DNA from: a virus
IMG/VR virus record: IMGVR_UViG_3300033388_004609
Location: 22,349 to 86,348 of that record
Reading direction: 5' to 3' (one strand)
Length of the DNA stretch: 64,000 nt
Part shown: positions 1,332-23,629 of the stretch, in pieces
Layout: each line of letters opens with the position of its first letter
Position numbering within the stretch: the first letter of the stretch is position 1
Notes under the pieces: model-generated
What the model saw: only the letters and a program-made list of their open reading frames with translations
The model's database searches: none
Told to the model about the DNA's origin: nothing
Translations under genes and position numbers: made by a program

Positions 1332-4300
1332 TTAAATTTTTAGTTGTTTTTTTAATTCTCTCATTTTTAACATTTTTGCAAATGGATCTGCTTTCTCCAT
1401 GGCTTTATATTTAAACATATCCATTCTTGCAAAAAAACCTGGTACCTCCAATGCTTTATGTGATTCCTCCGGATCGAAATGCATCATGTCTTCTTTAAGA
1501 AGCATCAACATTCCAAATGCGCTTACTCTGTCAAAATTACCGTCTTTATGCCAATATATAAATTCCTGTAATAATGGAATAGATCGTATTGTATGTAAAT
1601 TCATTAACTCACTACTACTGCTAACTTTAGTCACCAAATGTATTAATGATAATTCTCTCGCCCATTTATTTATTCCCTGTGTACCAGGAGATCCTTTTCC
1701 ACGATTAAGTACTACTTTATCAACTACCTTATCAGCTACTACCTTTGGAGTATCACAAAGCAAGTATGAAGAGAATGTATTATTCATATAAGTCCCCATA
1801 CCCTTGCAATCATTCTCGTAATTACACTTAGCATTATAATATATTAGTAACCTGCGAACATTTTCATAATACATATTCGCTGTCAGTGGCCGACCAGTAT
1901 ATTCTGCAACAATTCTACCTGTCACTTTATTCATGACAAATGTTGAACCAAGTGAATCTGTTGTTGAGTCATCATGGTCATATGTATCGTTACCAGCTAT
2001 ATAAAGTCCATACGGCACTTCTCCATCCTCTCCTGTTACTGGATGCTCATAGATCACTATACACCCTTCTATAAGCTTCTTATCGTTTAAAGGGAATGTT
2101 CTAATCGGTCTTGCCTCAGGATCTAGTTTCCATTCAATCTTTTCAGTCTCCGGGTTAATTACAAGTTTACCAACATACTCTGTGTCTTCGAATTTTTCAG
2201 GGTGAGTTCTTACATACGCAAGATGTTCTTTAAGATCATTAATAGGAAAGATAGTACCACCAATACGCATACATGCTTCCTGTGGTGTCTTGGGTTCTTC
2301 TGCAATGTGTCTTATTATTGCTTCGGGATTCTTTGTTTCATTTCTTACTTTATCCCTATCAGCCTCTATTAGTTTATCTGCAAGTTCTGTATCTGAATTA
2401 CCATCCTTATCCATGGTCCCTTCAAGATTCTTTAATACAGAAGAAAAGAAACCAGACTTCGATCCAGCAGTTGTAGTATCCCATATATTAGGAACCATAT
2501 GAACATTATATCCACCACCTTCATAATAAAGTTGCTCTAACCCCATAAAGTCTTGATTTTCAGTTCCTCCAGTTTGTTTGGTTATAAAATTGTTTGAGAT
2601 ATATGTATTTGTGTAAGCTGTATGAAGATTATAAATATTCTGCATCCCTATATATTCAACCTTTGTAACAGATTCGGTTCTAAAATTAGTCATTCCTTTT
2701 TTGCCAATAAAAAAATGACCTTTATCATTATCAGGATTCAATTCGAAAACACCTTTATTAATTCTGCTTCTATCTATAGAATTAGATTCATGTATCCGTC
2801 TCAAGACTTCCACTTTTTTCTTAGACAAAAGTTTAATATTCTTTTCGAAATTCTTTACATCATTTATATTTGTAATATACAATCTATAAACATATTCTTT
2901 ACCACCACTATATCCGCTAGTTCTCTTCTCTTTGATTATATTACCATGAATGCCAAACTTCGTCAACTGATAATAAACCTCCTTAAGTAAAGGTTTAATA
3001 TTACTCGTCAATACTACTCGAACTGTTTTCTTTTGCTTAGTCCATGTCACATGACCATCTGCATCAAAATAGCCTGCAAGTAAATCAGAAAGTGATTTTT
3101 TATTATATTCGTGAATATTCTTAGGGAGCCTTTTATCATCTTTTACTTGTCCGTATATACCAATATCTTTTAATACATGTGAAAAGTTCTTTATTCCTAC
3201 CGAATCATGCACTCCTCCATTACTCATAAATTTTGATTTGTATATAGAGGTATCATAATTTTTCTTAACATATTTTAATATTGAATCGTCTGCACATGAC
3301 AATTGAGGAGTTGCTCCTTTTGTATAATTTCCATCACCAATTAATAATCCTATTAATCGAGCATCTTTTATATTCTTTTTCCCAAATACAGGAACTTCAT
3401 CAATCTTTAATAATTGATCTCCTGGTTTTATATTTTTTGTTAATGTAAACGAAACTCTTCTTCCTGCCTGAAATTTTCCATCCATATATTTATACCATTG
3501 AGGTCTTGTCCACATTAATGGATGATCTCCTGAACATTCTATATAATTTTCTCCTGAAGTTGTTATTCTATAACATGGCTTTTTTTCAGGAGGTTTAAAC
3601 CATTTTATTTTTTCTTTATAGGACTTATAACCATCGTAACCTATAATTCCATCCTCTTGTTGTAAATCTTCAATATTTATTAGTTTTCCATCTTTCGTCC
3701 ATACTTTAGTTCCTGCACAAACACAGCCGAAGGATGCTTGCAAACCAAAAGTAAGTCTTCCTTGTTGCATACTTTTTAAGGAGATGTTCCATGCTTTTAA
3801 TAAGTTAGGATTTTTTCCGCTCTCTTCATACAGTATTAATTTTCCACGCTTGCCACGTGCTTTGTTCCAATTGTTTTTTAGACTTACTCCTATTATCTCT
3901 GACTTAAATCCTTTCTCTATTTTTAATCCATTCCTCTGAATATAGTAAGAAGCTCTTCTATGCATTACACTATTATGGACCTGTCGTCTTTTTCCCCATG
4001 GAGTATGATTTTCTATATGAGTCATCATATCCCATGCCTTGGTTATTATACCATCTTCAATAAGATAATCTTTATCATCCGCAAAACAATAACTTTTACT
4101 TCCTGGAATAAGATAATAATTACGATTACACATACCGCCACCTTTAAGACTAAATCCTCTCCCCCTGGTTTTGATTACCACTGCATGTTCACCACTCTCT
4201 TCTGCATCATTCAGATAATGAAAATATGTATAATCATTATCCCAAAAATGAGGAAATTGATCCTCCCTATCAGCTTGTGTCTGTTTGGTTAATTCATCAA

Positions 4301-4625
4301 ATCCCCTTTTGTTATCATCTATTTTTTCTCTCTCTACAGCAATAGGTATTGGACAATAATTTAGATAGAAATAAAAATAACCAGGAATCCAATCTCTTCC
4401 AATATCATATCCAAAGACTGATCTCCTGGCTTCTTCTTCCCAGAATTTATAGTACATACTATTGGGGTGAGAATTTACAGGGTAATTAGTGTATCTTCCA
4501 AACTCTTCAAAATGCAGAGCAGAAGCACGCCATTCATCGGTATTATAATGTTTAGTATTCTTATAATAACCTGATGTGATTATATCGCTTTTAGGTTGCA
4601 CCGGTGATAAAATGTCACTGGTCAT
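1332..4625 (-). CDS. terL: Terminase large subunit (crAss-like) with intein
   Basis: Walker A-like IKTRGRGFS, Walker B ILYEESG, FG|TGG motif split by the intein, RNase H-like nuclease AGNDTYDHDDSTTDSLGS...NFDRVSA. Confidence 0.92.
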   Translation of the reverse strand: MTSDILSPVQPKSDIITSGYYKNTKHYNTDEWRASALHFEEFGRYTNYPVNSHPNSMYYKFWEEEARRSVFGYDIGRDWIPGYFYFYLNYCPIPIAVEREKIDDNKRGFDELTKQTQADREDQFPHFWDNDYTYFHYLNDAEESGEHAVVIKTRGRGFSLKGGGMCNRNYYLIPGSKSYCFADDKDYLIEDGIITKAWDMMTHIENHTPWGKRRQVHNSVMHRRASYYIQRNGLKIEKGFKSEIIGVSLKNNWNKARGKRGKLILYEESGKNPNLLKAWNISLKSMQQGRLTFGLQASFGCVCAGTKVWTKDGKLINIEDLQQEDGIIGYDGYKSYKEKIKWFKPPEKKPCYRITTSGENYIECSGDHPLMWTRPQWYKYMDGKFQAGRRVSFTLTKNIKPGDQLLKIDEVPVFGKKNIKDARLIGLLIGDGNYTKGATPQLSCADDSILKYVKKNYDTSIYKSKFMSNGGVHDSVGIKNFSHVLKDIGIYGQVKDDKRLPKNIHEYNKKSLSDLLAGYFDADGHVTWTKQKKTVRVVLTSNIKPLLKEVYYQLTKFGIHGNIIKEKRTSGYSGGKEYVYRLYITNINDVKNFEKNIKLLSKKKVEVLRRIHESNSIDRSRINKGVFELNPDNDKGHFFIGKKGMTNFRTESVTKVEYIGMQNIYNLHTAYTNTYISNNFITKQTGGTENQDFMGLEQLYYEGGGYNVHMVPNIWDTTTAGSKSGFFSSVLKNLEGTMDKDGNSDTELADKLIEADRDKVRNETKNPEAIIRHIAEEPKTPQEACMRIGGTIFPINDLKEHLAYVRTHPEKFEDTEYVGKLVINPETEKIEWKLDPEARPIRTFPLNDKKLIEGCIVIYEHPVTGEDGEVPYGLYIAGNDTYDHDDSTTDSLGSTFVMNKVTGRIVAEYTGRPLTANMYYENVRRLLIYYNAKCNYENDCKGMGTYMNNTFSSYLLCDTPKVVADKVVDKVVLNRGKGSPGTQGINKWARELSLIHLVTKVSSSSELMNLHTIRSIPLLQEFIYWHKDGNFDRVSAFGMLMLLKEDMMHFDPEESHKALEVPGFFARMDMFKYKAMEKADPFAKMLKMRELKKQLKI
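2574..3725 (-). mobile_element. Intein with LAGLIDADG homing endonuclease, 384 aa, Cys1...Lys-Gln/Thr+1
   Basis: Block A CVCAGTKVWT, block B IECSGDHPL, LAGLIDADG motifs LIGLLIGDG and LLAGYFDADG, blocks F/G IYNLHTAYTNTYISNNFITKQ|T. Removing it restores ASFG-TGG. Confidence 0.9.
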
Positions 4626-19481: not shown

Positions 19482-19709
19482 AACAATCTTTATTTTAAAT
19501 TAATAATAGTATATCCATCCCGCATACTTTTATATAATCCAAAAAACATCCAGAAGCGATGCCACCTGGTTATTTTCCTATACGGATCAGAACCAATACT
19601 ATACCGACCTGGTTTAGGTGCAACAAAATTAAATCTCCTGCGATTATTCTCACCACGCAACAAATCCTCTTTGTAATTCTTCGGTGTCTCTAGTTTTTTA
19701 TTCATACCA

Positions 19710-19739
19710 CAAATATATAACAATATTCCAAATTAACAA
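19710..19739 (-). promoter_or_regulatory. Bacteroidota sigma-A promoter for the leftward operon
   Basis: TTG-19 nt-TATATTTG; ATG (MNKKLETP) at 19705, almost leaderless. Confidence 0.6.
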
Positions 19740-19774
19740 ATTTACAAGGTGCTAGTTTGTCTTTTATAAAATAA

Positions 19775-19804
19775 TTGCTTGTATCAAATATTTTATTATA
19801 TTTG
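19775..19804 (+). promoter_or_regulatory. Bacteroidota sigma-A promoter of the leader/tRNA operon
   Basis: TTG (19775-77), 19 nt, TATATTTG (19797-19804). Confidence 0.7.
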
Positions 19805-19811
19805 TACCGAT

Positions 19812-19892
19812 ATGAAAAAGAAACTACATACTCTCGTTTTATTACAGCCCCATTTGCCACGTGGCCATAATAAGGAGAGGTATATGTTTTAA
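19812..19892 (+). CDS. Attenuator leader peptide, 26 aa (MKKKLHTLVLLQPHLPRGHNKERYMF)
   Basis: Read directly from the sequence; 12 of codons 5-19 are Leu/His/Gln/Pro/Arg codons read by the downstream tRNAs. Confidence 0.8.
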   Translation: MKKKLHTLVLLQPHLPRGHNKERYMF

Positions 19893-19919
19893 ACAATATA
19901 AGATATTAATCAATTAATG

Positions 19920-19951
19920 TGCCTCTGAATATTCAGGGGCATTTTTATTTT
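19920..19951 (+). terminator. Attenuator terminator (3:4 hairpin) just before tRNA-Pro
   Basis: TGCCTCTGA-ATAT-TCAGGGGCA followed by TTTTTATTTT. Confidence 0.8.
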
Positions 19952-19952
19952 A

Positions 19953-20025
19953 CGGGAGTCTGGTGTAATCAGGTAGCATACCTGCCTTGGAAGCAGGAGG
20001 CGCAGTTCAAATCTGAGGTTCCCGA
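19953..20025 (+). tRNA. tRNA-Pro(UGG)
   Basis: Anticodon arm CCTGC-CTTGGAA-GCAGG, T-loop TTCAAAT, C1-G72 and A73. Confidence 0.85.
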
Positions 20026-20027
20026 CT

Positions 20028-20101
20028 GTGACTGATCCCGAAGTGGTCGAGGGGCCGGATTGTGATTCCGGTATCAGTGGGTTCGAGTCCCACCAGTCAC
20101 C
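20028..20101 (+). tRNA. tRNA-His(GUG)
   Basis: Acceptor GTGACTG/CAGTCAC, C73, CCGGA-TTGTGAT-TCCGG, GTGGG-TTCGAGT-CCCAC. Confidence 0.88.
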
Positions 20102-20105
20102 CATT

Positions 20106-20177
20106 GGCCTTGTGGTGTAATGAATAGCATGTAACGCTTCGAATGTTATGGTTCTGGTTTGAATCCCGCCAAGGCCT
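20106..20177 (+). tRNA. tRNA-Arg(UCG)
   Basis: Acceptor GGCCTTG/CAAGGCC, TAACG-CTTCGAA-TGTTA; weak T-stem. Confidence 0.78.
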
Positions 20178-20184
20178 CTCTATT

Positions 20185-20258
20185 GTCCCTTTAGCCCAAT
20201 TGGTAGAGGCATCAGGTTTAAGCCCTGTGTAGTCTGGGTTCGAATCCCAGAAGGGACA
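20185..20258 (+). tRNA. tRNA-Leu(UAA), short variable arm
   Basis: Acceptor GTCCCTT/AAGGGAC, A73, loop TTTAAGC, CTGGG-TTCGAAT-CCCAG. Confidence 0.88.
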
Positions 20259-20264
20259 CACAAT

Positions 20265-20338
20265 GCTAAAGTGTGCTAACTGGCAAAGCAGCGATACTTA
20301 GAATATCGTGGATGTGAGTTCGAATCTCACCTTTAGCA
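20265..20338 (+). tRNA. tRNA-Leu(UAG), short variable arm
   Basis: Acceptor GCTAAAG/CTTTAGC, A73, CGATA-CTTAGAA-TATCG. Confidence 0.9.
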
Positions 20339-20344
20339 CAAAAT

Positions 20345-20416
20345 TGTCCTTTAGTATAATGGTCAGTACACAAGGCTTTGATCCTTGAAATCCCGGTTCG
20401 AGTCCGGGAAGGACAT
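20345..20416 (+). tRNA. tRNA-Gln(UUG)
   Basis: Acceptor TGTCCTT/AAGGACA, CAAGG-CTTTGAT-CCTTG, CCCGG-TTCGAGT-CCGGG. Confidence 0.92.
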
Positions 20417-20484
20417 CTATACCTATCTTAAATATAATATATAAACACTATTTTAACAAACTCTCCGAGTGTAAAGTTGTTAAT

Positions 20485-20640
20485 CACCCACTATAAAAAC
20501 ACTCCCCACCCATAAAATTACATTAACGTCTCGGCCAAACAAACACCCACCCACACAAATACCCCCACCCTTTACTGTAACCCCCGTAAACACCCCCACC
20601 CCCTTTACATTATACCCCCCAATACCCCCATACCTCATCC
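20485..20640. repeat. C-tract (minus-strand G-tract) repeat region
   Basis: More than ten C3-C6 runs with recurring ACCCCC/CACCC units in an otherwise very AT-rich genome. Confidence 0.7.
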
Positions 20641-21312: not shown

Positions 21313-22042
21313 AAAAAAATAAGTTAATCTTTGACTAAAGCACAAGCTAAAATATGTTTGTCTCCACGTACTGTAGACTAACAAATTTACACGGCGCTAG
21401 TATGTCTTTTTTATTTTTCAATTTTTCATTAAAAAGGACTAAAGGAAAATAAGACAATTTTATTAAGTAATTAATAATCAACAATAAAACAAAATAAGCT
21501 ACAAAATAACTACTTTACACCTATATATATAAGGCATAATTAAGGACAATTTATCGTAGATAATCAACTATTTTTATTAGCTGATACCACTAAAAAGACT
21601 AATGGCAAAAGCTCGCAAACCCCTATGTTCACTGGTCTTTGCGCTAACTAATATATTGACTGCTGGCTTTTATTTTCTTATAGTATATATATTAGTATAA
21701 GTAGTAGTAGATAAGATTGATAACAATAATAATAGTGATTTTTCTATATTTTTATTGTTTGGTAAAGTAGAACATTTTATATTTTTTTACGAATATTTAA
21801 GAAAAAGTATAACTAATTCCGTTATTTGAGGGAGCAAAGATTTTAAGTCTATCTTATAGTTATCAAACTAAATTATACAATTATGAAAACATTAATAATG
21901 ATTACAAGGTACATTAACCGTCTTATAGACGATAATTGGAATACTGAACGTAAAAGAATATTAATTGAAAAACTATTAAAAAAACATCTGAACTCTTCCG
22001 AGAGTAGAACTTTTTATTATTAATCACTTAAACTAATCAATC

Positions 22043-23284: not shown

Positions 23285-23586
23285 GGGGCTGACAGGTTTT
23301 GATTTATTGTAGTAAGTAATTAATGCAAGCAGTGGTAAAACCCGGGAATCACTTTAAACAACTCGGGGAATAAACAAAAGGCAATACCATAAGTACGCCT
23401 GTTGCAAATGAGCTTAAGTTAGCTGCATAGCAACCGGGAATGTTAAGATGCCTGGGAACAAAAAGAATTAACAGCTTTTTTGTTTTATTTTTTTCATAAT
23501 TTTAGTTTAGGTGAATACTCATAAAGCTTGTAAACATTAGTTAAATACACAATGAAAACAAAAGGGTTCGATTCCCTTCGGCTCCA
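23285..23586 (+). ncRNA. ssrA: tmRNA; tag peptide (A)GNTISTPVANELKLAA* at 23380-23430
   Basis: 5' GGGGCTGA...GGTTTTGA and 3' GGGTTCGATTCCC-TTCGGCTCCA with G3-U70; pk1 (AGTGGT/ATCACT, CCCGGG/CTCGGG); tag ends LAA-stop. Confidence 0.92.
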
Positions 23587-23629
23587 CTACATAAATTACC
23601 ATTTAAATAATCACTTTATTAATTTTATA

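Follow-up and report, generated by a model that had tools for sequence, protein, structure and literature searches.

A probable leader-peptide attenuator before the tRNA operon of a crAss-like phage, with codon-matched leaders at other tRNA arrays

In the attenuators of amino-acid operons, a promoter-proximal mini-ORF (open reading frame) carries a run of regulatory codons, and the leader RNA can fold into alternative hairpins termed 1:2, 2:3 and 3:4 that end in an intrinsic terminator. A ribosome stalled in the codon run favours the antiterminator, and either no translation or full translation of the mini-ORF favours termination. The his, trp, leu and phe leaders each respond to a single amino acid, while the ilvGMEDA leader (Ile, Val and Leu) and the thr leader (Thr and Ile) are multivalent. 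The same type of control acts on pheST, where the regulated genes encode a synthetase and one amino acid is sensed. T-box riboswitches, on the other hand, bind one uncharged transfer RNA (tRNA) directly and need no ribosome. Regulation of a whole tRNA array has been described in Anabaena, in which the trn L-array is induced under translational stress (PMC8421152) and is controlled by the ribbon-helix-helix repressor TrcR (PMC10272220). In this study, we analyzed a 64,000-nt stretch of viral DNA (hereafter the window), which forms the final 64 kb of the 86,348-bp IMG/VR virus record IMGVR_UViG_3300033388_004609, estimated to be 88% complete. We sought to characterize an element of this window that lies immediately before the only tRNA array of a crAss-like phage.

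We estimate at about 80% the probability that this element is a ribosome-mediated (leader-peptide) transcription attenuator, which would gate the only tRNA operon of the phage by sensing ribosome stalls. Support for this reading was obtained in silico and comes from the anatomy of the locus, from the co-variation of leader codons with downstream tRNAs and from thermodynamic switch behaviour. The closest known logic is that of the multivalent ilvGMEDA and thr leaders. The element shares with amino-acid operon attenuators the promoter-proximal mini-ORF, the codon run, the three alternative hairpins and the intrinsic terminator, as well as the predicted response to stalled, absent or complete translation. 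It differs from them in that the regulated genes are tRNAs rather than biosynthetic enzymes, so that the product would directly relieve the stall, and in that elements of this kind would sample five to nine amino acids, usually with one to three codons each, instead of a long run for a single amino acid. It is also near-leaderless, stands behind a Bacteroidota-type promoter and belongs to no Rfam family. As in pheST, attenuation would fit the supply of a decoding component to the demand at specific codons, but here the output is RNA (the tRNAs) and the leader is multiplexed to the content of the operon. Like a T-box, the element would gate a terminator before tRNA-related genes according to tRNA status, but it has neither T-box features nor an Rfam match. 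The Anabaena trn array is comparable as an accessory, horizontally mobile tRNA array that stays off until translation is impaired; its control relies on the TrcR repressor, however, and a leader, an attenuator or a terminator is mentioned neither in PMC8421152 nor in PMC10272220. Full-text literature searches returned no account of tRNA genes or tRNA arrays being controlled by leader-peptide attenuation, in agreement with the first-pass annotation of this DNA, whose author knew of no such description for a phage tRNA array.

The record contains exactly six tRNA genes according to ARAGORN, all on the plus strand in a single array at 19953-20417. They encode tRNA-Pro (UGG; 19953-20026, 47.1 bits with the Rfam tRNA model), tRNA-His (GUG; 20028-20102, likewise found with the Rfam tRNA model), tRNA-Arg (UCG; 20106-20178), two tRNA-Leu of 75 nt each (UAA at 20185-20259 and UAG at 20265-20339) and tRNA-Gln (UUG; 20345-20417). 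Taken together, the codon boxes of these six tRNAs comprise all 16 CNN codons plus TTA and TTG. Since the genes upstream of 19724 lie on the minus strand, the 230-nt gap at 19724-19952 must contain the promoter of the array. The sequence of this gap includes a putative -33 element (TTG, 19775-19777, plus strand) 19 nt 5' of a putative -7 box of Bacteroidota type, TATATTTG (TAnnTTTG, 19797-19804, plus strand). Bacteroidota promoters have the form TTTG-N19-21-TAnnTTTG, which the spacing in the window fits, and transcription would start about 1-3 nt before the leader ATG. The window contains 86 matches to the TAnnTTTG motif, where 99.7 would be expected; the motif alone is thus not enriched and was not counted as evidence.

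The leader ORF follows on the plus strand at 19812-19892, with its ATG 7 nt after the -7 box. It has 26 codons and a stop codon (19890-19892) and ends 60 nt before tRNA-Pro, so that a short ORF separates promoter and genes, as in known leader-peptide attenuators. Also in keeping with such attenuators, an intrinsic terminator lies between leader and genes, both in the window and in the other modules described below. In the window it occupies 19919-19951 (plus strand) and consists of a stem-loop at 19919-19942, with 10 pairs, five of them G-C, a 4-nt loop and a stem energy of -11.8 kcal/mol, followed by a T-run at 19943-19951 that ends 1 nt before tRNA-Pro. No other promoter-like site was found between the leader ORF and the tRNAs, and the array must therefore be transcribed through this terminator. 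Promoter, 26-codon ORF, terminator and tRNAs were each located where the first-pass annotation had placed them.

The regulatory stretch of the leader comprises codons 5-19 (19824-19868, plus strand). Of these 15 codons, 12 fall in the boxes of the six tRNAs, eight of them in an unbroken run at codons 10-17, and all six downstream tRNAs are represented; the codon list drawn up in the first-pass annotation was correct in each of these respects. For comparison, we used a null set of 467 random ORFs that begin with ATG and have 20-35 codons. Four of them contained a run of eight or more matching codons, and only one combined such a run with representation of all six tRNAs. An enrichment calculated against real genes (P = 3e-4) was set aside because it overstates the effect: random short ORFs already average 27% box codons, the plus strand being C-rich. 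Only once the comparative data are added does the codon match appear to lie far beyond chance.

These comparative data come first from a scan with the anticodon arm of tRNA-Leu(UAA), which led to an unrelated 7.5-kb viral contig, L003. Among its tRNAs, only Leu(UAA) is similar in sequence to a tRNA of the window (91% identity). The contig carries three successive modules (L003a, L003b and L003c). In each of them, a -7-type box precedes a mini-ORF 25-27 codons long, after which come a hairpin rich in G+C, its T-run and a tRNA block. In L003a, the leader run LQQEHLLPQERQ precedes a block encoding Pro, Glu, Gln, His, Leu, Leu and Arg(ACG); tRNA-Glu has been added to the block, and GAA and GAG have been added to the leader. 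In L003b, the run KIVGTRKA, followed by GIDM, stands before (Ala), Lys, Ile, Gly, Met, Asp, Thr, Val, Arg(UCU) and Met. The leader run of L003c is YFYSCNNSWSN. Its block contains Asn, Cys and Phe by default ARAGORN calls and Ser(UGA) and Trp at a relaxed threshold, and two further tRNA-like genes were read by eye as Tyr(GUA) and Ser(GCU). The three-by-three table of codons, leader by block, is diagonal (13/6/7, 4/16/4 and 1/8/15).

A second scan, with the anticodon arm of tRNA-Pro, yielded L018, a complete phage of 85,239 bp with terminal repeats and only five tRNAs. Its terminase is 31-46% identical to that of the window, making it a distant crAss-like relative. Here, TATATTTG is followed after 4 nt by the ATG of a 24-codon ORF with the run LHLQPQR, then by a hairpin with a T-run and by tRNAs for Pro, Gln, His, Arg(ACG) and Leu(UAG). 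L018 lacks a Leu(UAA) tRNA, and its 7-codon run uses none of the codons of that tRNA. Across the three viral records, every tRNA is represented in its own leader (6/6 in the window, 5/5 in L018, and 7/7, 9/9 and 7/7 in L003a, L003b and L003c). The matching runs measure 8, 7, 12, 8 and 11 codons in the same order and all start at codon 5 or 6. A run as long together with full representation was reached by 1, 0, 0, 1 and 0 of the 467 random ORFs, respectively. Because L003 resembles the window only in Leu(UAA) and L018 is a distant phage, the design is not one inherited sequence. The first-pass annotation would have taken as a refutation any relatives that keep the tRNAs with no corresponding leader codons; the result was the opposite, the codons shifting to match the tRNA sets of L003 and L018.

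Further cases were detected in Bacteroidota assemblies by a scan of GTDB genomes. In L099, a contig of a Saprospiraceae metagenome-assembled genome, the leader run LSLCSF.WSL precedes tRNAs for Leu, Phe, Leu, Trp, Cys and Ser, with 6/6 represented. L098 is a contig of the same kind whose leader is homologous to that of L099 and whose terminator is nearly identical. In L103, 9/9 tRNAs are represented and the run extends over 13 codons. A 1.2-Mb Dokdonia contig (L095, minus strand, ORF at 1723) carries a 41-codon leader with all 20 amino acids before an array of 18 tRNAs. Each of these four arrays may belong to a chromosome, to an integrated element or to a phage contig that was binned with the genome. 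Altogether, eight more leaders, drawn from six other sources of DNA, show the four-part design with matched codons. A quick look with default tRNA calls at Caulobacter phage phiCbK (L091, 47200-52800) also showed a 32-codon ORF at 4142 that contains QFVRQIQVVRNI and precedes a block of Phe, Val, Ile, Ile, Val, Gln, Gln and Ile, with 8/8 tRNAs represented; at the other blocks, no clear match emerged from these calls. Leader codons thus co-vary with the tRNA content of the block, and the leaders of the window, L018, L099, L103 and the three L003 modules are enriched in the codons read by their own tRNAs.

We then evaluated by folding how a ribosome on the leader would affect the terminator. The transcript was folded as far as the terminator's 3' arm, with nucleotides -15 to +11 around the A-site codon forced to be single-stranded, and this mask was stepped along the ORF. 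Without a mask, the window leader folds at -36.4 kcal/mol (z = -3.84 against shuffles). This minimum-free-energy fold contains, along with the terminator, a 1:2 helix inside the ORF (approximately 19828-19849 with 19863-19883), in which 19828-19849 is segment 1, forming the 5' side of the leader hairpin, and 19863-19885 is segment 2, forming its 3' side. When the mask covers segment 1, a 10-bp 2:3 helix appears between the 3' part of segment 2 (19876-19885), which is the antiterminator partner, and segment 3 (19917-19926), which belongs both to the antiterminator and to the terminator's 5' arm. All three segments are on the plus strand, and both helices had been proposed in the first-pass annotation. 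An equivalent antiterminator is predicted in all five main leaders (window, L018 and the three L003 modules). In each, codons 17-24, immediately after the run, include a stretch rich in purines, and it is this stretch that pairs with the 5' terminator arm, which is rich in pyrimidines.

The probability that the terminator forms, P(terminator), did not fall below 0.95 in any of the five main leaders when no ribosome was present, nor below 0.90 when the ribosome stood at the stop codon. In the window, the modelled value was 0.98 without a ribosome, fell to 0.07 at codons 5-9 and returned to 0.98 at the stop codon, as expected from the earlier proposal that a ribosome reaching the stop would bring about termination. 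The corresponding minima were 0.21 in L018 (codons 9-10), 0.01 in L003a (codons 12-14), 0.00 in L003b (codons 2-12) and 0.01 in L003c (codons 6-12); overall, the drop within the regulatory run brought P(terminator) to 0.00-0.26. L099 showed the same behaviour, its P(terminator) of 0.98 dropping to 0.0 at codons 7-13. The pattern was stable over three mask sizes and at both 15 and 37 °C. It was found in 5/5 leaders but in only 1/300 dinucleotide shuffles in which the leader was shuffled and the terminator kept, and in these models the locus reproduces the attenuator logic of his, trp and pheST that the first-pass annotation had invoked. Thermodynamically, a mutually exclusive antiterminator set by ribosome position, another hallmark of leader-peptide attenuators, is therefore predicted.

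Several observations on the start context point to translation of the leader. In four of the five main modules (window, L018, L003a and L003c), the ATG follows the -7 box after 4-7 nt, and the first codons of the leaders are A-rich ones for Lys, Asn or Thr. The -7 box with an ATG in this context mostly opens real genes, for example SmpB, in comparable DNA from IMG/VR. A search of IMG/VR for the pattern TATTTGTACC N(0-4) ATGAAAAA returned 51 loci, of which L003 alone has tRNAs downstream, the rest being mostly ordinary gene starts. From this ATG spacing, the A-rich early codons and the same start context at real genes, translation of the leader ORF appears probable. Within the window, a divergent 71-aa gene (19703-19717, minus strand) has its ATG 4 nt after another copy of TATATTTG (19717-19710), and promoter-proximal, near-leaderless starts therefore seem normal in this phage. 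Between the two divergent promoters, 5' of the leader, lies a 23-nt motif with palindromic ends (AAATTTACAAGG...TTTGT, 19738-19760). It recurs at 21383-21405 with three mismatches, against 0 recurrences expected by chance, and may be an operator for a phage regulator.

The following sequence of events would account for these features. Host RNA polymerase would start at the TAnnTTTG promoter, and a ribosome would load at once on the near-leaderless ATG at 19812. If codons 5-19 were read quickly, the ribosome would reach the end of the ORF and cover segment 2, the terminator at 19919-19951 would form, and transcription would end 1 nt before tRNA-Pro. If the leader were not translated, hairpin 1:2 would form and the terminator would form again. 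If a cognate charged tRNA were scarce, the ribosome would stall in the run, covering segment 1 and leaving segment 2 free. Free segment 2 (19876-19885) could then pair with 19917-19926, which would block the terminator and let the polymerase enter the tRNA genes. Stalling at the regulatory codons would thus lead to more read-through. As the tRNA products would relieve the stall, the circuit would be a negative-feedback gauge of decoding capacity. Natural triggers can only be a matter of speculation, and might be codon mismatch, loss of host tRNAs, tRNA-cleaving defences or loss of TrmD.

A number of points weigh against this reading. Taken from the window alone, the codon match is only moderately unusual: the box-codon fraction of the leader is equalled by 28 of 328 random short ORFs, and the regulatory run is broken up by Thr, Val and Gly codons. 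Strict wobble pairing matches only 9 of the 12 codons, as CTC, CCC and CGT require four-way reading by U34. The match of L003c needs the relaxed ARAGORN calls, and with the three default calls it is not significant (19/467). No close relative reaching the leader of the window was found in searches of INPHARED, IMG/VR and JGI metagenomes. A blastn search of INPHARED with the locus gave scattered tRNA-Leu matches only, the flanking genes and the helicase used as protein anchors in IMG/VR and JGI metagenomes led to no relatives, and exact tRNA pattern searches retrieved no close relatives of the locus. A back-translated pattern search produced a single 1.35-kb contig, which ends 70 nt upstream of the start of the neighbouring gene, short of the leader. 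Most of the arrays screened have no such leader, namely the phage arrays L002, L004, L005, L007-L017 and L019-L024. Likewise, in four gut Steigviridae crAss-like phages with 15-26 tRNAs (cr111_1, cr85_1, DAC15 and Kehishuvirus tikkala; L084-L087), no combination of TAnnTTTG, codon-matched mini-ORF and terminator was found upstream of the tRNA blocks; Cellulophaga phage phi14:2 is devoid of tRNAs. Not all tRNA arrays, therefore, have the design. Moreover, extra tRNA would not relieve stalls caused by amino-acid starvation.

The position of the effective stall also deserves attention. The first-pass annotation had held that a stall at codons 10-17 would free segment 2, and this was borne out only in part. 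Stalls at codons 10-13 of the window lower P(terminator) only to 0.63-0.84, and those at codons 14-17 cause no drop at equilibrium; it is codons 5-9 that flip the modelled switch. Read-through from the 8-codon run would consequently rest on the order of folding, as the 2:3 helix would have to form before segment 4 has been synthesized. The read-through of the trp leader similarly depends on folding order. Before segment 4 exists, segment 3 of the window is predicted to be pre-paired upstream with a probability of 0.69-0.75 for an A site up to codon 18, and this value falls to 0.15-0.30 from codon 20 on. This kinetic proxy (segment 3 paired before segment 4 exists) separates late ribosome positions well but does not separate the state without a ribosome in L003a and L003c, and it was used qualitatively only.

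Other explanations of the same locus have to be weighed against ribosome-mediated attenuation. The leader could be translated and codon-matched and yet the hairpin at tRNA-Pro could mainly govern processing by RNase P or the stability of the precursor. Only 1 nt separates the end of the T-run from the mature 5' end of tRNA-Pro, so that the hairpin is part of the RNase P substrate, and the T-run of the window is interrupted (TTTTTATTTT), which speaks in favour of such a post-transcriptional gate. In the other modules, however, the hairpin and the first tRNA are 5-17 nt apart, a canonical G+C-rich stem followed by a T-run is present in the five main modules and in L099, and the alternative pairing is aimed specifically at the 5' arm of the terminator. 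We regard this possibility as unlikely. Slightly less likely still is a factor-dependent temporal programme, in which a phage or host antitermination protein, or a repressor bound at the repeated motif, controls the array and the ORF has no sensing role. The repetition of the 23-nt motif (19738-19760) at 21383-21405 is compatible with such a factor, and the Anabaena trn operon provides the example of a tRNA array under a repressor (PMC10272220). But the motif lies upstream of the -33 element, where it fits the divergent promoter at least as well, and a protein factor would leave unexplained both the tracking of codons and tRNAs across unrelated arrays and the switch that depends on ribosome position. 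Such a factor could nevertheless act on top of attenuation.

We consider it very unlikely that the arrangement is a coincidence in which an ordinary promoter happens to be followed by a structured 5' leader with a chance ORF and by a terminator that leaks. The random ORFs that are as rich in the 18 box codons (the 28 of 328 above), a C-rich strand that favours CNN codons and a -7 motif that is not enriched all go in this direction. They are set against the recurrence of the matched four-part design in the eight further leaders and the rarity of the switch pattern among the shuffles. Direct sensing of tRNA by the leader RNA without translation, in the manner of a T-box, seems the least plausible of these explanations. 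T-box leaders do gate a terminator by the state of a tRNA, but a leader of only about 140 nt would have to sense, as one RNA, five to nine different tRNAs, and the matching triplets are all in frame with the promoter-proximal ATG. In addition, an Rfam search of 19600-20100 gave no T-box match at E-values up to 10. Among the Rfam amino-acid leader families, the best match was Phe_leader (20.1 bits against a threshold of 55), which covered the terminator only, and PyrG_leader reached 21.4 bits against a threshold of 65. A T-box or another known RNA family was accordingly rejected, as the leader-family matches are far below threshold and no riboswitch matched.

Beyond the window, we lean slightly towards the view that codon-matched leader attenuators are a general, modular form of closed-loop control of accessory tRNA blocks, occurring in diverse phages and in arrays of Bacteroidota genomes, each block being switched on only when its own codons are read slowly. 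Blocks tend to split by the first codon base, those of the window, L018 and L003a being CNN blocks and those of L003c and L099 being of TNN type. On L003 (4590-7542), the three modules divide the genetic code roughly along this line: module 1 covers CNN, TTR and GAR, module 2 most ANN and GNN codons, and module 3 TNN, AAY and AGY. The arrays of the window and of L018 correspond to the CNN module alone.

If the proposed mechanism is true, it would be the first known attenuation of tRNA genes and a direct sensor of decoding capacity rather than of amino-acid supply. Phages would then carry a built-in gauge of the decoding capacity of their host, responsive to codon-usage mismatch, host shut-off or tRNA-cleaving defence, and leaders could be read as a record of the tRNAs that a phage expects to lose. 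The finding bears on the regulation of phage tRNA genes and on the reasons for which a phage carries one set of tRNAs and not another. It makes testable the on-demand production of phage tRNAs, the shortages that would trigger it (codon mismatch, decay of host tRNAs or anticodon nucleases) and the use of the same logic in chromosomal arrays. The succession of promoter, mini-ORF, terminator and tRNAs offers an annotation rule for the boundaries of functional tRNA operons, and for synthetic biology the element suggests a compact, programmable sensor of several codons.

The assignment of the phage relies on its large terminase. The ORF at 1332-4625 (minus strand) encodes a protein of 1097 aa whose C-terminal 413 aa share 34-39% identity with terminases of 127 records, mostly Crassvirales. 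It resembles the terminases of Crassvirales phages of Bacteroides, Flavobacterium and Cellulophaga and also matches PHROG 6681. The phage is therefore crAss-like, with a crAss-type large terminase. The large terminase domain occupies residues 685-1056, in the C-terminal part of the protein, and the middle region shows a weak match to a primase family (PHROG 510, E = 5e-6). Fragments with 94-97% identity to the region, some of them lying across 19857-20110, were present in two DNA runs from cold-seep metagenomes; the run search listed no RNA sequencing runs matching the stretch.

Some additional features were observed in and around the array. Both tRNA-Leu genes of the window (20185-20339) are without the long variable arm found in class II tRNA-Leu of bacteria, and this arm is likewise missing from the tRNA-Leu genes of L003 (5196-5349). 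A 20-nt segment of the Leu(UAA) anticodon arm has exact matches in many Bacteroidota genomes, among them Dokdonia, Aquimarina and Saprospiraceae. Directly 3' of the array, at 20470-20640, lies a C-rich low-complexity tract with many CCCCAC/CCCCC repeats, in a genome that otherwise has 32% G+C; it contains no ORF and has no RNA-family match. Finally, the phage encodes a transfer-messenger RNA (tmRNA) at 23285-23589 (plus strand; 62.4 bits with the Rfam tmRNA model against a threshold of 47), which ARAGORN did not call either in the window or in the whole record. The tmRNA and the putatively gated tRNA array would be two elements of this phage that deal with stalled ribosomes.

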